Below, piece after piece: positions 19,475 to 61,189 of a stretch of DNA of 64,000 bases (the first letter of the stretch is position 1; each line of letters opens with the position of its first letter). Source of the stretch: Felis catus (taxonomy: Eukaryota); the NCBI RefSeq assembly GCF_018350175.1, contig NC_058368.1, forward strand, positions 85,252,001 through 85,316,000, written 5' to 3'. Below the pieces are notes generated by a model, which was not told the DNA's origin, ran no database searches, and saw only the letters and a list, made by a program, of their open reading frames with translations. Made by a program: the position numbers and the translations under genes.

Positions 19475-19660
19475 CCAATTCTTAAATATAGGGAGCAAAC
19501 TGATGGTTACCAGAGGGGAGGTGGGTGAGGGAGATGGGCTAAATGGGCAATGGGGATTAAGGAGAGAACTTGTGATGAGCACTGGGTGTTTGAAGTGTTG
19601 AGTCACTAAATTGTACACCTGAAACTATTATTACACTGTAAGTTAACCAGCTGTAATTTA

Positions 19661-19883
19661 TTTTTTTTTAATTTTTTTTTCAACGTTTATTTATTTTTGG
19701 GACAGAGAGAGACAGAGCATGAACGGGGGAGGGGCAGAGAGATAAGGAGACACAGAATCAGAAACAGGCTCCAGGCTCTGAGCCATCAGCCCAGAGCCTG
19801 ACGTGGGGCTCGAACCCACGGACCGCGAGATGGTGACCTGGCTGAAGTCGGACGCTTAACCGACTGCGCCACCCAGGCGCCCC
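19661..19883 (-). mobile_element. Young felid SINE (SINEC_Fc-type)
   Basis: CpG-rich gtcggacgcttaaccgactgcgccacccaggcgcccc; perfect 17-bp TSD taaccagctgtaattta. Confidence 0.95.
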
Positions 19884-19919
19884 TAACCAGCTGTAATTTA
19901 AATAAAAACTAAAATTAAA

Positions 19920-25178: not shown

Positions 25179-25259
25179 AGGCTTAAACTATTTCTTACAA
25201 AAGTTGTTTTCACAAGTTCTTTTCTAATTTGGGAAACTTTTATTTTAATTAGAATTGTC

Positions 25260-25591
25260 ATAAATTATTCTCTAGAGACTATTGTTTCAGTAGAAACCTT
25301 GCCCTTAGGGAACCAGCAGTAATGAACTCAGGCTTCCCTCCTGTTTCTGAGTTCCAATAATCTGCAGATGTGATCAGTGGCACTCCATAGTTTTGAATCA
25401 TTCATTCTTACACAGAGTCCTTATAAAGTCTTCTATAGTCATGGCTATATACTCCCCTCCATAGTTTCTTTACATTCTGAGACTTTCAGCCTGAATGATA
25501 TCCAAATCAAGAAGTTATAAAGGAGTAATACTCTGAAACCATGCACTTGTACATTCATAAAAACTCTGAGGTACACCTTCAGCAGGTAAGT
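25260..25591 (+). promoter_or_regulatory. Putative promoter and 5' non-coding exon of the plus-strand OR
   Basis: O/E-like ttctctagaga (about 25268) and gcccttagggaa (about 25301); TAATGA at about 25320; consensus donor CAG|GTAAGT at 25583-25591 that could join the acceptor at 27441. Confidence 0.5.
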
Positions 25592-26671
25592 AAAAAATTG
25601 ACAATGTTCTACTCTCAATTCATGGTCTTTGGATTTTTTTTCTCTCTTTTATTTTCCCAATCACTGATTTTCTTCTTTTTCCTCCACTTTTCACTCATTG
25701 ACAACCTAATGCAAAATTTTGGAATTAACTGAAAGGATCGTTATTTTCCCAAGTTGAGAGTTTAGTGTTTGCCTTACATTGCTAGTGCCTCAAGGCATCC
25801 GTAGCAGAACACAGGAAAGTCTCTTTCAAATAATACACATTCCTCCACAATTACTTTTTTTTCCTTTTCCTCCAAATTCATCAATATTTATTTTCTATGA
25901 TTTTAGGAAGCTAGACTGAGCCCTTCATACTGTGTCACTGAATTAACGAATTTAGTCTCTATTAACTAAAATACTCAATTTGTGTTACTGTATTCAGAAT
26001 AATTATTATAAACAATCATGATGAAAACTCCCAACTTTGATCCAAATTTGTTTTACTCTTTTATAAAGTGAATGATATGCCTATAAGTGAGAAATTTATC
26101 TGTGTTCTCACTTGTTTCCCCATTGTTAAGTAAATATATAAGAGTAAGTCAGTGAAAATATAAATAAGTATTTTGGTCAAAAAAATGAGCAAAACCTAAA
26201 TTAAAACACACAAGGTCTTATTTCTAACATTGATCCTTCTATGATATAAATTTTAGCTAACCATTACAGCATTCACCCATCACATCTACTGAAAAGTAAC
26301 AATGGAAATTCCCACTTATCTAAAATTAGCCATTCCAACACCTACCAATATCAAATTTGTGTTTCTTATAACCTGAAATTTGAAATCACTCTCTAATCCA
26401 AAACTTTATTTAACAAAATTCCTCTCCAAGAATGTTCCTGTGTCTTTTTTCTTCACTTTTTATTCTTCATTTATAATACGAACTGTACTTACACTTTTGC
26501 TTCTTCTCTTAGTAAAATTCAGAAGTTCAGTTTCTCTACCCTTCTCACCAAATGTTTGCTCTGTTTGAATTAATTCCAAGATAAATACAATCAGCATTGA
26601 TAAAGTCATATGTTTGATTCTTTTTCTTATTTTAAAAAGACCTGTGAGCATCTTATGAACTATGAGAAGTG

Positions 26672-26890: not shown

Positions 26891-27458
26891 GAGATATGAT
26901 TCTATATAATGATTACATGAGGCTGACTTTACATTAATGATCAATTTAACAGTAATAGAGGTTGGTACCCATAACTAAAGGGTCATGAACCTATTATCGA
27001 TCATGTCTAGTTGGGTTTTTTTAGCTTTTTTTTCTCACTGATAATAAAATATCTTTTCAAAGTTATTTTTGTATATGAATATTAATATAGAATTAGACTT
27101 GATAGCAAGTCTGTCTGCCAGCATTCTTTTACATCTGAATGGATTAAAGTCACTGTGATGTGCCTATCCCAAAGGGCACTACTCATATGTTCACATGGCT
27201 CATGAACAGCTAACTTCACTGTTAGAGTCCATACACTGAGCACAGACTCACAGGTCTTTCAAAAGAACAATTGTGTCAATCTTAATGTAGAAGTGCATTC
27301 CACAGTTCATCTCAGGACTTATTTTATTTTGTTTTTATTATCATCCTTCCACAAAGAAAAAGATAATTTCTATAGTAAGGGCACTTCCAAAGTTAAGTTG
27401 CAAAGACCAACCATGAACTTATATTTTGTTTATTATGTCAGGTGGAAGTGTCAACATT

Positions 27459-28654
27459 ATGGATCACAGAAACAAGACCAGAGTCATGGAGTTTATTCTT
27501 CTGGGGTTTCAGAATGAAAAGGAAGTAGAAATTCTTCTTTTTTATGCATTCTTGCTCATGTACATGACGTCTCTGATTGGCAACACCATGATCGTCCTTT
27601 TGGTGTGTGGTGACTACCATCTGCATTCACTCATGTATTTCTTTGTAGCCAATCTTTCCTTCCTTGAAGTTGCCATGACCTCCACAGTGGTGCCTAAGAT
27701 GCTGGCAAACATATTTTCCCTCACCAAGGCAATATCCTTCATAGGATGTCTCACACAGTCTTTCTTCTACTTCTTCTTGGGATCCACGGAATCCTTCATC
27801 CTGGTCGTCATGTCATTTGATCGATACATTGCCATCTGCAACCCATTGAGGTATGCCATCATCATGAACAAACAGACATGCATATTGTTGCTTCTGGGAT
27901 CCTATTTAGGTGCATTTTTGTCAATTTTAGCACCATCAATCTTAACTGCTCCTCTGCCCTTTTGTGGACCAAATATTATCAATCACTTCTTTTGTGACAG
28001 TGGCCCTGTGCTAAAGCTGGTCTGTGCAGATATCGCTCTGGCTGAGCTGGCTGACTTTATCTCCTCTGCTGTGTTGCTCTTGGGCTCCTTGCTCTTCACA
28101 GGAGTGTCTTACATGTACATTATTATTGCTATCCTTAGAATTCCTTCTGTCCAGTGACAGCAGAAAGCTTTCTCCACTTGTGTTTCACACATCACTGTTG
28201 TGACACTTTATTATGGAAGCTCCATCTTTATTTACATCCGCCCAAAAAAGGGTGATGTGATGGATCTTAACAAATTTGCCACAGTGCTGAACACCGTTGT
28301 AACACCGATGTTGAACCCTTTCATCTATAGTCTTCGAAATGAGAAAGTCAAAGAATCCCTGAGAGATGCTTTCAATAAATATGCAGGCATGTTAACAAAT
28401 TCAAGATCTTTTTTAAATTTTTTTTTCAACGTTTATTTATTTTTGGGACAGAGAGAGACAGAGCATGAACGGGGGAGGGGCAGAGAGAGAGGGAGACACA
28501 GAATCGGAAACAGGCTCCAGGCTCCGAGCCATCAGCCCAGAGCCTGACGCGGGGCTTGAACTCACGGACCGCGAGATCGTGACCTGGCTGAAGTCGGACG
28601 CTTAACCGACTGCGCCACCCAGGCTCCCCAAGATCTTTAAAACCACAAAAATAA
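27459..28654 (+). pseudogene. Olfactory receptor family 6-like pseudogene (nonsense codon plus SINE insertion near the C-terminus)
   Basis: MDHRNKT...LHSLMYFF...MSFDRYIAICNPLRY...HFFCDSGP...[17 protein letters not shown]...[16 protein letters not shown]. In-frame TGA at 28155-28157. A SINE at 28412-28629 interrupts the last codons; the original TAA is at 28652-28654. Splice acceptor ttttgtttattatgtcag ends at 27441. Confidence 0.93.
28412..28629 (-). mobile_element. Young felid SINE (SINEC_Fc-type) inserted in the OR coding end
   Basis: Near-identical to the copies at 19661 and 60677; TSD (c)aagatcttt at 28402-28411 / 28629-28638. Confidence 0.95.
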
Positions 28655-41924: not shown

Positions 41925-42881
41925 TCACTTGGACCTCATCCCCTTGAGGAAGTTCCAGCCCTTGGCCAAGCTGTCCTTCAGAACATCTTTCATGGTTTCA
42001 TTCCGTAGACCGAAGATGAAGGGATTCAGGAGGGGTGTGAGAACACTAGAGAGGATAAAGAGGATCTTGTTGAGATGTAAGCTGCTCTTCTGGGAGAGGT
42101 GGACATACACAAAAATGGAGATCCCATAGCCCATGGAGACCACAATGAAGTGAGAGGCACACGTAGCAAAGGCTTTGCGTTGACCTTGACCTGAGGGTAT
42201 CTTCAGAATGGTGGAGATGACATAAACATAGGAGACCACAGTGAGTGAGAGGGAGCTGATGAGCAGGACAAGGGAGCTGAGGAAGTCTAACAGCTCAATG
42301 ATGTGGATGTCAGCACAGGCCAAGTGGAGGAGGGGGGCACTGTCACAGAAAAAGTGATCAATCACATTGGGGCCACAGTATGGCAGCCCCACCTTAAGGA
42401 CAGTGGACGGGAGAATGAGGAGAAAACCACCCACCCAAGAGAGGATAACAAGACGCACACACAGTGAGCTGGTCATAATTGCTGGGTACTGAAGAGGGCT
42501 GCAAATGGCCACATAACGATCATAGGACATAACTGCAAAAAGGATAAACTCAGTACATCCAGAGAGGAAGTAGAAATAAGACTGGGTGAAGCATCCACCA
42601 AAGGATATGCTCTTTCTGTCTGACAGGAAGCCTGCCAGCATCTTGGGAACAGCACAGGTTGTGGTTAATACTTCACTGAAGGAGAGATTGCTGAGGAAGA
42701 AATACATGGGTGAGTGAAGCCTATAATCCATGAGAATCAGCATAATGATTAGGCTGTTTCCAAGGACTGTCACCAAGTAAGCCAATGAAAAAATAAAGAA
42801 CAGGAGACCCCCAAGAGCTCTGGTGGTTGGTATCCCCACAAGAATAATCTCAGTCACCAATGTCCAATTCCTTCTTTCCAT
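41925..42881 (-). CDS. Olfactory receptor, class II, family 6-like (intact, single coding exon, 318 aa)
   Basis: Uninterrupted ORF with OR hallmarks: N-glycosylation site NWT, LHSPMYFFLSNLS, MSYDRYVAICSPLQY, HFFCDSAPLL, KAFATCASH, PLLNPFIFGLRN. A splice acceptor (ctctctttacag, minus strand) ends at 42900, 18 nt before the ATG. Confidence 0.97.
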   Translation of the reverse strand: MERRNWTLVTEIILVGIPTTRALGGLLFFIFSLAYLVTVLGNSLIIMLILMDYRLHSPMYFFLSNLSFSEVLTTTCAVPKMLAGFLSDRKSISFGGCFTQSYFYFLSGCTEFILFAVMSYDRYVAICSPLQYPAIMTSSLCVRLVILSWVGGFLLILPSTVLKVGLPYCGPNVIDHFFCDSAPLLHLACADIHIIELLDFLSSLVLLISSLSLTVVSYVYVISTILKIPSGQGQRKAFATCASHFIVVSMGYGISIFVYVHLSQKSSLHLNKILFILSSVLTPLLNPFIFGLRNETMKDVLKDSLAKGWNFLKGMRSK

Positions 42882-44558
42882 ATTTATGTCTCTTTTTTAC
42901 TGTAAAGAGAGTTATAGCATAGGAAAAAGAATGGTGAATCATTCATCAAATTAAGAAATCAAGGAGAAATTTAAAATAAAATTTTAGCTACTTTTTCTAG
43001 CAAAATTGAGAAAGACAATTGATATTATGATTGGGTACACCATATCCTACAAAAATACAGCTGAAGAGCTATGAAAATCAATTTTGATAACTCCATCTTT
43101 CCTTTCTATATTCTGTAACACTTGGGTGGGGTGTGCTAAATATATAATTACAACTATATATTTTATCAATAAGAACTTTGTCCAGTAAGTGTTCTGATAA
43201 AATACACAAATGAAAGATTAGTTGGTACCTGTAAATATAGAAGCAATTTACTTCCAGTGTTTGTCTCATGAAGACTGGGCTGTCCCAATGTTACAAGGGC
43301 ACATAGAGAGTACAGACTCCAGCTTCAAGCCAATGGTGCATCTAGGGTTCAAGAGCCACGTGGATAGTGGGCACATCTTGCAGGCACATTTTCTCACCTG
43401 AGATTCTAGTGCTCCAATGGCCAGTAAAGGCAGAAAAATAAAAATTAATTAGCTTATCCTCCTTTGTATATTTAAAATTACTTTTTAAAGGTTTTATTTA
43501 AATCCCAGTTATCTCTATAGATTTCAACTTGTCCTTCTTTTCTAACATTTATTTTTCATTGCATTGTATTGTATTCCATTGAAGTTAACCTCTTCTTGAA
43601 ATTTTTACAGTGTAAAATATTACACAAATAATGTGTCAATATTTGCAAAAGTGTTGATAATTTTTCTATTATGCTTTTGGAATGTCATATTTGATGGGAC
43701 AGGGTGATGATTAAAAGTTTGTTTCTGAATAATTTTACAGAAAAGAGGGTTACAATGACTTGGCAGAAGTACAAAATAATCCTCTAGTTTGACAAATAAT
43801 CATATACAAAATAACCACGATAAAAAAACTATAGGGAGATTATATAACTTTGGCAGAAATCAAAGGCATCAATAGTGATTTTCTCCCCCCCCCAAAAAAA
43901 AATGGGGATAGAGATAAACATAATCTACTTTTGCAATAACAAACAAAAAACACTAAAATCCATTTTGAAAATAATAATCATAAATCTGCAGCAATAAGAA
44001 TTGTACCAATAAACAATATATTAAGTGGTACAGTTATACATATAGGACTGGAATGAAAAACTAATGCAATTTTCCAGAAATACACACAACATAAAATGAT
44101 TCAATACGTAAAAAATATAAGCATTGGTATAAATATTTTAGAAAACACGTGAAAAATTGAAATGTGAGTTGTAATACTCATGGTATAAAAACTGTTATCA
44201 ATGCAAGGAATGCAAAATTAGACAAAAATCAGATCAAAATTTTATGAAACTATATGATATGAGAGATTACATCAAATTTATGGTAGGCAACTTTTAAAAA
44301 CACAAGCAAAAATAAAAATAACATGGTAGTAAGAAAAATTGACATAATATTTTTATGTTTCAGAAAAATTAAATAATGAATGGTATATGGGGATTATTAA
44401 AATAAGGTATTTAGAAATAAATGTTAAGAAATATCCATAATATTATGAATGGAATGACAAGTCAAATCCACTAATTGGAATTAATATTCCAAATTATTTA
44501 TACATAATATTCAGTTATAACCAAAATATAGGATTGGGTTTATTTCAAAAATGACCAG

Positions 44559-44768
44559 AGAGCGCCTGGGTGGCTCAGTCGGTTAAGCCTCCGTCTTCGG
44601 CTCAGATCCTGATCTGGCGGTTTGTGAGTCCGAGTCCCATGTCAGGCTCTGTGCTACCAGCTCAGAGCGTGGAGCCTGCTTCCCATTCTGTGTCTCCCTC
44701 TCTCTCTGCCCCTCCCCTGCTCATGCTCTGTCTCCCTCTGTCTCAAAAATAATTAAAACATTTTTAAA
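44559..44768 (+). mobile_element. Can-SINE
   Basis: gcgcctgggtggctcagtcggttaag. Confidence 0.92.
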
Positions 44769-45659
44769 AATGGCTAATATATTTAAAATATAATCTCTAA
44801 TTTTTATAGACTCTATTTTTAAGCAATTCAATAAATGATTTCACAGTATTAGGTACTATGCCATTATTTAGACAAGGCTAAACAATTCAAGGCAAATATC
44901 CCAAATATAGTTTGAATAACTAACTGTAAACATAGTTACATAGTTTAGTTCCCCAAAATAGTTTGAAGAACTATTTGATGAAATGTGCCTTGAAGCAAAC
45001 CTGGACATTGAATGTTTGGATTGAAGTTAAGATAAGAAAAGGCGAAAAGTAGATATTACAGAAGTGGAGAAATTTTTGACATCCCAAAGAAAGATGTGTG
45101 AGAGCATGGAAGTTTATTTCTCATTAAAATGAAGCAATTCTGACTTTCTGAAAGCAAATGTCAGGTTTAGTTCTAATCATATAATATTCTAACTTCCCTA
45201 GCATCTCACTTTCACACAAATGTAAAACATTCGATGCAGTTGCATTTGATCTTCTTACTAGAAATGTTTTTACACAGGGAATACCTTTGTTAAGTCCCTC
45301 ATCTTCTTTCCAAACACAGTAAACCTCTTCCTCTATTACCCCATAGTGTTGTCTCACAAGAAGTGCCCCCTGTCCAATAAAAATGACTTTGATGAAGAAA
45401 AAGCAGAAGAAATTCCCATCTTTGTACCACTGGCTTTCCTTTTGAAACTGAATTCTTGGGCCCAGGAAACACTGATTCCCATAAAAACTGTTCAGTCCCA
45501 ACTCCTTGTGATGACAAAATATCACAGGACAATTCCACAGCACCATGCATTCCAGATGCATAGTTTTGGAGGCTAACATAGTTTTAAAAGCAGCTCCTCA
45601 GCCTATGTGCCCACAGAGAGCTTGACTGGGTGGGGAGGAGTCATGTTTTCATTCTCTCT

Positions 45660-45790
45660 ATGTTTGTGAAACTTTTTAATGAGTCTACTCTTCTGAGACT
45701 CCCATGTACACAGAGAACTTTGTGTTCCCAGGAGAAGTTTTAAGACTAAAAGGATGATGTACTTCAAGTAAAACTAATTATTTTCTGTGA
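45660..45790 (-). promoter_or_regulatory. Putative OR promoter/enhancer core: homeodomain (Lhx2-type) plus O/E (Ebf) sites
   Basis: AACTTTTTAATGAGTCT at 45670-45686, O/E-like TCCCAGGAGA at 45726-45735, TAATTA near 45775. Repeat-free DNA about 2.8 kb upstream of the intact OR ATG. Confidence 0.65.
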
Positions 45791-46599
45791 AAACTTGGCT
45801 AAAATGTTTTAGGTAATTCTTTTTTTAATCTATAAGTATTCTGTCCTATGATATCAGGAGCATATGTACTCCATTATTTGTTTTTATTACTTTTCAGTTG
45901 ATGACTCTGATTAAAGTGCAAACATGATTTCACCATAATGTGCTTGTCTAATAAGTATGAAAGATTTATTCACCAAACATAATCTAATTACTTGACCTGA
46001 AGCCTACAAGCGGGATGGTAAATATTGATGAAGAAGTTGTTCACTAAAAAAGGATCCCTGGGTAGGGGCAAGATCTATTGGACATGCAAAGTAAGTTTGT
46101 GTGGATGATGATAAGGGTCTCAATTTTTCTGATCATTTTATTATCATTTTTCCCCAAAGAACAAACATTTTTCATTTGTTTATGTTCCTGTATGTACTTG
46201 TGGTAGTACTACATGTGTGTATATTTTAAAAAATTTATTTATAATTATTGCTGAATATATATTGTTTTCCTGTCCTGGCAGGAATTATTTTATGTGAGCA
46301 AAAATAATATTCTCTTCTACACTGTTGGATTCACAAATGTAATTTCTTCTCCCATAAATGAGTGTCTGCACCTTTCTCATTTAGATATAATGAGATATAA
46401 TGGAATTGATGTTTTAATGCCTAATATGGATGTCCAGCTAGCTGTGTTCCCTCTGAAAGCATTATAATTACTTTTCTTTCCTCCTAGGGTCCTCTGAATA
46501 TTATATATATTAATATACACACACTGTGTAGTAACTACACAGTGTAGAAATATACTACATTCTAAGTATATTTATGCTTTTCTCAAACTTTTAGTGAAA

Positions 46600-46715
46600 T
46601 TATTCAGAATAAATATTTCATTCACCTTGGATATTTTAATCTTAATATAGTGGCATATAGGAACTGGTTGAAAGTATTTTATGAGTGTTTGAATGAATGA
46701 ATGAATGAATGACTA
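46600..46715 (+). mobile_element. L2 3' end
   Basis: atagtggcatatagga...tgtttgaatgaatgaatgaatgaatga terminal (GAAT)n. Confidence 0.5.
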
Positions 46716-48529
46716 TGGGAAATTGACAGTATTGTCTGTTATTCATGAAGAGTGGCAAAATCTGTAAGATTTCATTACGTTTCAAAAAAAGGATTGTAAA
46801 TGCAACCTTCACACTATGGACTGAAGTCTAATGAAGGTCTTATCCAAAAAGAATAGAGAATTTGGAGGCTAGGAACTTATTGAAGGTAAATAAGAAAGTG
46901 GCTTCATATAATTTATGATAAAATTATACCATGAAAAGATATTATGGCCTTACAATTCATTCCCAGTGAACAATATCTGACAGAATAAATCACATAATAT
47001 ACAGGAATCCTTGAATTATACATAAGCAAAACTACTATGAGAAAACATTGTATTTTATAGCTTCTTTTGAGGCAGAAGAGAATAGTTGTGCCTTTCTCTA
47101 TTTCAATTCCTTTCCTCTGTGAAAACCAAAATATTTTTCATTTTTGGAAGTTATATTTCAAAGTTGTGAATTATGACGTTTCTCCTAGTTTAGGGCTCCA
47201 TAGGACCAAACAGATCTTCCTGACTTTTTTCCATATCTTCCTCTTCTTCAAGGTATAACTTAATATGATCTCCTTGAAAGGGATTTTGGTGCTACTCCAC
47301 TGCCCACCAACCCATTTCACCTCCACAGCTGTGATTTCAGAAACCCACCATGTGACCATTAAGCTGGGCTGTCATACAAGTTTTAGGTTTTTTGTGTGCT
47401 ACTTTTATCTGTCTAGAGTATTATGCATTTAAGGAAAGGAACCATACCCAGAATTCACTACTGTTATGTTCAATATCTAGCATGGTGATCAATAATTACT
47501 ATAATGATTTCTATTATGAATTCTCACACTATTTCCATAGACCTCATAAGATCAGAAAGTAATGAATCTCCTCAAATAGTTAATTTAAAAAAGAGTTATG
47601 AAATATAAATTTGGAGAAAGATAATTTATCCATAACTTGAAAATATAAATACATATTATGATAATTTTAATCAACATTTTATATATGTAACATAATTTTA
47701 GCAATAATAATCATATACACTTTTATTATCTGCTTTTCTCCATGACACTACTTTATAAACTATACCCTATATGTCTATTCCATATTTTAAATTTATTTAT
47801 TTGTCTATAGGTAACTTACACAGATGGTATTATCCATCACAGTTGCCAATATGTTTTACATGTAAGGAAAAAATATTATAAACATAGAGGAGGCTCTTTG
47901 AAAGAACAATGGGGCAGTAGACATGAAAGGGAATAAAATGATTTTTGAGATAAAAATGTTATGGTAGAACAATGTCACAGCATTTTAAGAACATGATGAC
48001 AAGTATGAGCATTTAACATGTGAAGATATTAAAAGAATAAATTCAGGAAGAAGAAAAGATAATAATAAGGCACATGTGGTGAAAATATATTGAGAACACC
48101 AGACAGCTTATAATGTAATTTAGCTTGATGTAAAAAAAATATGTATATAAAAGCTTAACTAACATTTATTTATTATGTAACAAAATAAAAAAAATTAATG
48201 GAAACACAATTTTATATGAATAAATTCTGTTCAATTATTTTGTATGTGACCAAAATCAGAAATAGTCATAAAATATATTTGTGTATCATCATCTTATTAT
48301 GAAGTACATTACACTTATATAAAAGATATTGTAACTTCATTTGTCAGACTCAGAAATTCTTGGGTTCTGCCTGTTGTCCCAGCAAATTATTAATATTATT
48401 TGACATCACCATCACTGTGTCCCACTTTAGACAATAAAGTATATGGTTATTCTACCAACAGGACAACACATTTGGTAATTAATTTCTTAAACTGATTTGC
48501 TTCTGCCTTCCCTTCTTTTGCTGATGTTC

Positions 48530-49950
48530 AGCAACATGAAAAATTCAAGAGCAAGAGAGCAGAATAGGAAATATCAGCTTTTATCACCCTCCCAACACAT
48601 AAAAACAAAATTGGATTATAATAATAAATAAAAATAAAAGAAACAAACTAAAGTAGCCCTTGCAGGGCTTGAAAGTAAAATTAAGAGTCTACAGTAACAG
48701 AGTGGAGCACAATATGGAGAATCACCACACAGAGAGGACCACTCAGGAGACTAACAAAGTGAAGACATCTGGAAATGTGTGGAGAGGCTACACAGACACA
48801 GGGGGAGGCTACTAGTATCTGTCATGCAGCAGGTACCATTGCCATGTTGAGTGGCTTCCTCTGCTGAAGACCCTAACAGTCTGGGCTGTTGTGGACTCCA
48901 CCAGCCTCACAACAGCTACAGACTCCCCACAACTGTCACAGCATGGGGACCCTGCAGTGTTCATCATCACAGACCCGAGTTGACTGCTGTTGCAGAAGAC
49001 ACTGAAAGCTCTCACCACTGAGGTAAACAGCGGCCATTGCTGGGAGACGCAGCTCTGCTCCATCATCCCAGAAGGAATTGCTGTTGTTTTACCACGGGAC
49101 TAAGGTTGTGAAAATCCCTACCTGCCCTGTGGATCCCCTGAACCCTAGAGTCATAACTCATCCATGTATGCTTGAGCGCCAAACTATAGCTCTGTACACC
49201 TGCCCATGTACCCATCCTCCAGACTCCAGCTCCACAGCTATTCCTTATATGCCCATGTTCCAGGCAGTAGGACCAATGCCACTGCAAGCTAGCCAGTGCC
49301 CCAGACTCCAGAGCTGTTGTCACACTGTGAGAACCTATGCCACAGTCCCAGCTCTGTGGCTGCTCCACTGGCAGCTACCCATCAGACACTAGTGCAACCA
49401 CCACTGAGAGAGGTCTCAAATAAACCGCCTAATTTATGACTCAAAGAATAGAAAATGAGAACATTAAATCCAAGTTACTACAAGGAAGGAAATAACTGAG
49501 AGCAGTAAAGAAATCAAGTAAATGGAGACTAGAAAAACACTAGAAAAACTAAATTGACAAAAGTTTAGGTACACTAAAGAAAGTGAGAATATGCAAATAA
49601 ACAATATCAGAAATGAAAGAGGAGACATTAAAACCAATACTGCAGATATACAAAGTATGGATAGTTATATGCCAAGAAATTTGATAACCTATAAGAGTAA
49701 GATAAATTCGTAAAAATATAACCCACCAAGATGGAATCATGAGAACTCGGAAAGCTGAGCAAATAACTAGTAAAAGAGATTGAATCAGTAATCAAAAATC
49801 TCCTAACAACAAAAGCCCAAGAACAGATAGATTCACTAGTGAATTCTACCAAACAAGTCAAGAATAATTAACATCAATCCTTCTCCAACTCATCCAAGGT
49901 ATTGAAAAGTAAGGAATACTTCAAAATTCATTTTATTGGAGTATCATTAT
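48530..49950 (+). mobile_element. Old L1M 5'UTR joined to an ORF2 fragment
   Basis: GC-richer L1 5'UTR-like block (48780-49410), then agagattgaatcagtaatcaaaaatctc...gaattctaccaaaca ORF2 sequence. Confidence 0.6.
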
Positions 49951-59428: not shown

Positions 59429-59740
59429 CTTCTAATACGAATGAGGGTCTGGTTTATTATGGGAGAAATTCTCCTGAGGATCGGGTCAGTAGAACACTGA
59501 GAAAATTTTGATGATTAATGCAGGCAAAGGGTAGGTATTTGAACTTTATAATGAGGAATCAGAGCACTGTTACAACACTGGCAAGCTTCCCATGAGATAT
59601 GGAACTGAGGATACTGGGACAATACAGAGAAACTTCTGACAGAAATGCAGGCAGTGTTTACTATTGGGCAATTTAAACATTTTATGATCATTAATATTGG
59701 AATGAAGAATAGAACACTAATATCTTACCAAAAGTATCAA

Positions 59741-59955: not shown

Positions 59956-60676
59956 AATATATCAAAATTGGGACAAAAAGGTAGAAGAAGCCCCATCATA
60001 CCTTGTTCTCCCACAGAGACACAAACGTAACATTATACAACCCAAAAAAATCTTTATGAAAATGCCAGAAATCAATTCAGAAGGTGCAATACCCCAAGAA
60101 GGCGAAGTTAAGGACAGCATGATGAAATGTGTAAGAAGAGCTGTTGAATTTAGTCTACGAAATCCCTTCCCCAAGCAAGCAAATATTGGCACAATTTGGA
60201 CAAAAGATCCAAGTTGAAGTTTTTCCTTTGGGAGAAGAATAGAAGAGTGGAAATGACTTCCAGTGTTTCAGGGACTTTCCTGAGGGACTGGTTTTTGTCT
60301 TGCATAACTTGTGGAGTGATGATGGGAACTAACAAATATTGGACACCATGGGGTTGCTGAAAACAAAGAGAGGAGAGGGGTCTGTGACACTACCAGGGAA
60401 TTTGCATTACCATGGGCAAACATCAATGAGAGCATGTTTTCTGAAAAAGACACTGGCAAAAATCTTTAAATGGGAAATTGCATGCACAAGACTAAAGGAG
60501 ATTTGTCCAGAAAAGTTTTCAGAAGTTCCCAGAAACTCTACCCAGGCTGGTTGGTGAAAGGTTTTCCCTGTATAAAGGCAATGGCAGAATATACATTCTT
60601 CCCAAGTGCATAAGTATATCATGTGGTAGCCCACAAAATAATTATTTTTCCCCATAACTTTTAATTATTTCCTCTT

Positions 60677-60899
60677 TTTTTTTTAATTTTTTTTTCAACC
60701 TTTATTTATTTTTTGGGACAGAGAGAGACAGAGCATGAACGGGGGAGGGGCAGAGAGAGAGGGAGACACAGAATCGGAAACAGGCTCCAGGCTCTGAGCC
60801 ATCAGCCCAGAGCCTGACGCGGGGCTCGAACTCCCGGACCGCGAGATCGTGACCTGGCTGAAGTCGGACGCTTAACCGACTGCGCCACCCAGGCGCCCC
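60677..60899 (-). mobile_element. Young felid SINE (SINEC_Fc-type)
   Basis: CpG-intact copy; perfect 15-bp TSD taattatttcctctt. Confidence 0.95.
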
Positions 60900-61189
60900 T
60901 AATTATTTCCTCTTATAGACAGAAGTGCCAAGTATTCCTTTTGGAAGAAATTTTCTTTGAACTACAGGTGTCTGCTTTGCTTTGCTTTATTATTTTGGTT
61001 AACATACAGTGCTATCGTAGGTTTAGGTGTACAATTTAGTGATTCAACACTTATGTACAACACCCTGTATCATCACAAGTGTACTCCTTTGTCCCCATCA
61101 CCTATTTAACCCCTTCTTCCACCTATCTCCCCCCCCCCCCGGTAGCCATCAGTTTGTTCTCTATAGTTAAGAATCTGTTTCTTTGTACT

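Follow-up and report, generated by a model that had tools for sequence, protein, structure and literature searches.

What is a 17-base match to the mouse H element doing 2.8 kb upstream of an intact odorant receptor (OR) gene of the cat? A sequence-only reading had noticed the match in the window, by which we mean the whole 64,000-nt stretch of DNA analysed, and had proposed either a strong Lhx2/Ebf promoter that gives this receptor a high probability of choice, or an unannotated enhancer for the cluster. The module around position 45670 is most likely one more instance of a known motif, serving as the promoter of a conserved felid family-6 OR.

The receptor genes of the locus

The window holds two ORs, arranged tail to tail and 51% identical, with no further OR remnant found in it. 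The first, on the minus strand at 41925–42881, encodes an intact class II receptor of 318 amino acids belonging to family 6, whose relatives are named "6M1-like". It is 95–99% identical to felid "6M1-like" entries (99% for the snow leopard), 88–89% identical to hippo and bear entries, 82% to marsupial and 73% to echidna entries; with identities reaching from felids to marsupials and echidna, this class II family-6 receptor is an old one. In great apes, the annotated relatives are shorter products of 260 amino acids with ~84% identity, and bears and pigs have several close copies of this receptor type. Neither in the best 120 of 6859 protein matches nor in the member lists of 10 clusters does a named mouse or rat orthologue occur. 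The only rodent entry among those best 120 is a fused model at 44% identity, and no rodent orthologue above ~65% identity is named there. This pattern is suggestive of a loss of the orthologue in rodents and, since none is named among the best 120 matches, an overlay of mouse ChIP data by way of the gene may be impossible.

The second OR, also of family 6, occupies 27459–28409 on the plus strand and is interrupted by one in-frame stop, ahead of the sixth transmembrane region. As its reading frame is open everywhere else, it has probably become a pseudogene only recently or is a polymorphic allele. A SINE is inserted right at its 3′ end, and three SINE copies in the window, at 19660–19886, 28406–28629 and 60676–60902, are mutually 95–97% identical and form a young subfamily, the older copies standing at ~75–80%. 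Two cat database entries, P0028 and P0042, fuse an N-terminal part of the intact OR type to a C-terminal part of the other type, probably as gene models of chimeric origin; a few residues of P0028 depart from the window sequence, a hint that a near-identical paralogue or allele exists.

An extended homeodomain site and its neighbours

The match itself, AACTTTTTAATGAGTCT, lies at 45670–45686 on the plus strand and comprises 17 consecutive bases out of the 21 in the H-derived element x21, as the sequence-only reading had stated. The 21-mer that it named agrees with the one printed in 10.1101/2021.09.28.462154 and PMC8213819, and its 13-mer with the sequence that PMC7804114 and PMC5638857 assign to H, P and the P3 promoter. 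This extended homeodomain 13-mer, the same as in mouse H, P and the P3 promoter, spans 45670–45682 and ends in its TAATGA core (45677–45682). The four bases that follow, GTCT at 45683–45686, agree with mouse H only; P and P3 differ there. In H, they make up a 1-bp spacer and the first three bases of an adjoining O/E-like half-site. The 13-mer occurs exactly once in the window, and the 17-mer has no other match there even when up to two mismatches are allowed. From the start of the motif to the ATG of the intact OR (42881) the distance is 2789 nt, in line with the 2.8 kb first given. The description of the DNA around the motifs as repeat-free needs trimming: the 4.9 kb from 44772 to 49664 have no repeat match in a comparison confined to the window, in which old repeats may remain, but a SINE-like repeat at 44544–44770 sits between motif and gene.

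The companion O/E site reported about 40 bp away is indeed there. It is a strict O/E (Ebf) consensus site, TCCCAGGAGA, at 45726–45735 on the plus strand (the window has 10 such strict sites, all distinct), and it is separated by 39 nt from the end of the 17-mer and by 43 nt from TAATGA. The latter gap falls within the published range for close but separate Lhx2 and Ebf motifs, such as promoters too are expected to show. A homeodomain core, TAATTA, is present at 45775–45780 as the sequence-only reading had it; TAATKR, however, occurs at 204 sites in the window, about once per 300 bp, so the extra TAATTA carries no weight. The O/E-like site near 46055 can likewise be read in the sequence, as TCCCTGGGT on the plus strand (46055–46063; the whole site is taken as 46055–46064), 370 nt further upstream and with one mismatch. 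Closer in, a degenerate O/E-like site, TCTTCTGAGA, at 45689–45698 on the plus strand agrees with 8 of the 10 positions of the consensus YYYYNNRRRR. This half-site lies 6 nt from TAATGA, which is 5 nt beyond composite-motif spacing, and it may be a chance occurrence; an O/E-like half-site falls within 0–10 nt of 11 of the 204 TAATKR sites in the window (~5%). The nearest other TAATGA words are at 45121 and 46388, i.e., 556 and 711 nt from the motif core. Short AAGTTTTC and AAACTTTT words at 45788–45798 and 25231–25249, near both candidate promoters, resemble parts of J-element and TAAR-element motifs and are too short to exceed chance. An open reading frame of 151 codons runs from 45124 to 45579.

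A second module occupies 59542–59597, with a homeodomain site that matches 12 of the 13 bases at 59542 and a strict O/E site at 59588, in the same orientation as the 45670 module. From the start of the homeodomain site to the start of the O/E site it measures 46 nt, versus 56 nt at 45670. It lies 16.7 kb upstream of the intact OR, with no nearer OR in the window, and just outside the end of a repeat that we take, by resemblance, to be LTR-like. Since this module is so far from any OR in the window, homeodomain–O/E modules need not mark start sites. By a criterion set after the module had been seen, one module of the 12/13 type turned up in 6 of 300 simulations and two in none of 300; the one-mismatch 13-mer site by itself is at chance level, two or more being present in 19 of 100 shuffles. 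For the second module, a role as distal promoter or as enhancer is conceivable, as is a promoter serving some gene outside the window or a chance occurrence. That the two modules are paralogous was considered and set aside: their local alignment scored 34, against a mean of 26 and a maximum of 39 over 200 shuffles, higher scores came from at least 12 of 532 other segments of the window, and the flanks are unrelated.

Promoter, enhancer or chance match

To the reading in which the stretch ~45600–45780 would be the proximal promoter of the minus-strand family-6 OR gene we assign an even probability; the homeodomain and O/E sites form a real and probably functional module. Mouse OR start sites lie on average 4.2 kb from the ATG (range 0.2–24 kb), in repeat-poor, AT-rich DNA devoid of CpG islands, and O/E sites are 3.3-fold enriched in the final 200 bp before them (Young et al., 2011, PMC3247239). 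The cat stretch combines O/E and homeodomain sites 2.7–2.8 kb from the ATG, within that range, in AT-rich, repeat-poor DNA with no CpG island (CpG observed/expected is 0.07). In addition, composite Lhx2/Ebf motifs are reported to be depleted from promoters; as none is present at 45670, the promoter reading is favoured. A GC peak has been described at OR start sites (PMC12547500). Here, a local peak of 0.56 at 45601–45650 on the minus strand, directly downstream of the motifs in the direction of the gene, is the highest among the 24 50-nt intervals of 45101–46300, and this single interval constitutes the predicted transcription start region.

In the mechanism that we infer, Lhx2 or Emx2, as olfactory-neuron homeodomain factor, would bind the extended TAATGA site and an Ebf dimer the O/E site ~45 bp from it, and transcription would start shortly downstream, near the GC peak at ~45650–45550. 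The transcript would open with a non-coding first exon, probably ending at a donor at 45209 and spliced across ~2.3 kb to a candidate acceptor 18 nt before the ATG (42900–42915, minus strand, read from the sequence), with a second exon possibly included in between. The long match to H would then represent a recurring preferred binding context for the factor, not common descent with H. Donor-like sites were scored by a simple count against a consensus, and four on the minus strand between 42890 and 46300 reach at least 7/9. The candidate at 45204–45212 (donor at 45209, 7/9) would close a first exon of ~400 nt, and that at 43392–43400 (donor at 43397, 8/9) may belong to an internal 5′ exon or close an alternative first exon. 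Since a mere 0.5 kb separates this best-scoring donor from the ATG, the real first exon may be the one at 43397, with the motif 2.2 kb further upstream.

The broken OR at 27459–28409 is laid out alike. Its probable promoter, at 25301–25326, just beyond an L1 fragment and ~2.1 kb upstream of its ATG, consists of an O/E-like palindrome and TAATGA; a perfect splice donor follows at 25585–25593 (near 25587), and an acceptor precedes the ATG at 27430–27441. Homology between this upstream region and the motif region was rejected, as the two gave no convincing alignment. Also discarded as evidence of transcription were the RNA-labelled sequencing runs that hold parts of the stretch, whose shares are about what assembly size predicts, as for genomic DNA; none of the 24 runs holding part of the stretch bears a nasal or olfactory label.

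Could the match instead be a chance or decayed, non-functional one in AT-rich OR-cluster DNA? Under Markov backgrounds of orders 0–6, trained on the window minus the site, the expected number of 17-mers per window is 2.6e-5 to 8.3e-5 (~6e-5), which bears out the earlier rough estimate of well under 0.001, and that of exact 13-mers is 0.014–0.025 (~0.02); an exact 13-mer was present in 1 of 100 shuffles. In a genome of 2.4 Gb, however, ~500–950 exact 13-mers and 1–3 exact 17-mers are expected by chance. With ~1.4e-3 chance 13-mers per 5-kb upstream region, one or two would occur upstream of the roughly 1000 OR genes. The exact 17-mer is found, moreover, in at least 120 unrelated metagenome stretches, none of those compared being like the window beyond a few bases round the motif, and no role has been demonstrated for the four H-specific bases outside the context of the half-site, which is lacking here. 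The motif alone is thus not rare genome-wide; what is unusual is its place beside an OR combined with the O/E site. Chance would place ~5e-6 17-mers per gene within 5 kb of an OR start, and an adjacent strict O/E site, whose probability within 60 nt of a given place is ~0.02, brings a further factor of that size. The 13-mer with a strict O/E site within 70 nt arose in none of 300 windows simulated with an order-4 Markov model. A strict O/E site within 60 nt accompanied none of 115 chance 17-mer matches in unrelated DNA, mostly of non-vertebrate composition, and a metagenome scan for the motif with the spaced O/E site returned no match. In the window at large, TAATGA lies near 4 of the 10 O/E sites versus 1.26 expected (p = 0.03), an association that deserves little weight because one of these sites is in presumably LTR-like DNA and another at a SINE edge. 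Finally, a gene intact across mammals, as this one is, must have a promoter at such a distance. Chance is an unlikely source of the motif pair, and the match as a whole is, in our estimate, quite unlikely to be a non-functional accident.

Two further alternatives grant the site a function of another kind. In one, it would act as a Greek Island-type enhancer, intergenic or close to a promoter, to which Lhx2 and Ebf would both bind in most olfactory neurons and which would raise the choice of several ORs in the cluster. Its AACTTTT-TAATKR-R-TCT context recurs in H and Sfaktiria, P itself is promoter-like, and the second O/E-like half-site stands 6 nt from TAATGA. Two sequence hallmarks of such an enhancer fail, however. 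The composite pattern in PMC11643329 is violated at 3 of its 17 positions (14, 15 and 17), and a 2-bp insertion already impairs binding of the composite by a fusion protein (PMC5608512). Nor is there a cluster of TAATGA: H has three in 92 bp (10.1101/2022.05.05.489571) and TE2 three in 206 bp, against a single one here between 45121 and 46388. Conservation between species is the criterion that chiefly guides the prediction of such enhancers. An enhancer is therefore unlikely, contrary to the second proposal of the sequence-only reading. In the other alternative, the element would be a promoter whose single extended site gives the receptor an unusually high probability of choice. Multimers of x21 raise OR choice ~40-fold, and expression differences between strains have been associated with promoter variants in homeodomain and O/E sites (PMC12547500). 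But the x21 effect was obtained with 4–9 tandem copies, not one, and the 10 mouse OR promoters to which Lhx2 and Ebf bind show expression close to the median (PMC5608512), which leaves a high choice probability without support. Both H and P3 of the rat, furthermore, differ inside the 13-mer (PMC6744719), and exactness of the 13-mer is accordingly no known measure of strength. We hold this alternative to be rather improbable. Of the strong, frequently chosen Lhx2/Ebf promoter first proposed, the Lhx2/Ebf-type site survives as the best reading, and "strong" and "high choice" find no support.

A more speculative and very improbable variant sees an undescribed olfactory enhancer, or enhancer-like promoter, of this OR clade: a natural split composite, in which an ancestral composite of the H/Sfaktiria type would have been pushed apart by 5 bp. 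A near-duplication, TCTAC-TCTTC, noticed after the fact, precedes the degenerate O/E site at 45689. A half-turn shift (5 bp) of the composite gave smaller hub-like condensates in vitro, with binding kept (PMC11643329). The clade would have been kept in carnivores, pigs, afrotherians and marsupials and is apparently missing in rodents, for which reason the element would be invisible to all mouse screens. If this variant were true, the 45670 and 59542 modules, whose homeodomain-to-O/E spacings differ by exactly 10 bp, would point to a helical-phase grammar of OR elements. Should other mammals have an intact composite where cats have a split one, the orthologues would make it possible to test in nature whether enhancers and promoters are told apart by composite spacing, and also whether one extended site alters the frequency of receptor choice. 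The promoter reading has plainer consequences. If it is right, the site tells where an unannotated cat OR transcript begins, and the motif already described in H, P, P3 and J gains one natural example outside rodents, which would be useful rather than surprising.

Relation to H, P, P3, J and the Greek Islands

Judged by its letters, the cat motif uses the same extended homeodomain word as H, P and P3, 44-nt segments of which are given for mouse and rat in Supplement 4 of PMC6744719. Its likeness to mouse H, and to x21, extends over 17 of the 21 x21 bases and stops there: outside the 17-mer, only 8 of 27 bases agree with the 44-nt H segment (counted by eye). In H, an O/E-like half-site abuts the homeodomain site, whereas in the window that half-site breaks off; and the x21 choice enhancer is a multimer, whereas the window has a single copy. 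P and P3 carry a second TAATGAG on the opposite strand two bases after the 13-mer, which the cat locus lacks, and their flanks differ from those here. A copy or orthologue of H or P was accordingly rejected, given the unmatched flanks, the one TAATGA and the missing inverted second site. A canonical Greek Island composite at 45670 was rejected too, owing to the three failing pattern positions; the motif is neither.

The resemblance to the Greek Island composite, exemplified by Sfaktiria (Monahan et al., 2017, PMC5608512), consists of a 5′ T-run, the homeodomain core, a purine spacer and the TCT start, and the nearest O/E-like half-site in the window is shifted by 5 nt. The geometry of homeodomain site and half-site in mouse H is that of the Sfaktiria composite probe (PMC5608512, supplement 7), and the composite motif, with its 1-bp spacing, is found in 35 of 63 Greek Islands by stringent and 55 of 63 by permissive criteria. 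[quoted passage not shown]

In the literature searched, which leaves out most subscription journals, nothing on this locus came up for the 13-mer in cats, cat olfactory RNA or carnivore OR enhancers, and the 13-mer was not found in the searched supplementary files of conserved elements and promoters, which may hold coordinates only. Among promoters, the exact extended 13-mer is named in print, in the accessible text of PMC7804114, for P3 only. With P3, the Olfr713 promoter, and the P element, the cat site has an identical 13-mer and a nearby O/E site in common, and it shares with P3 its position upstream of an OR. With class II OR promoters in general, it has in common the paired O/E and homeodomain sites, the AT-rich and repeat-poor setting free of a CpG island, and a distance of a few kilobases from the ATG.
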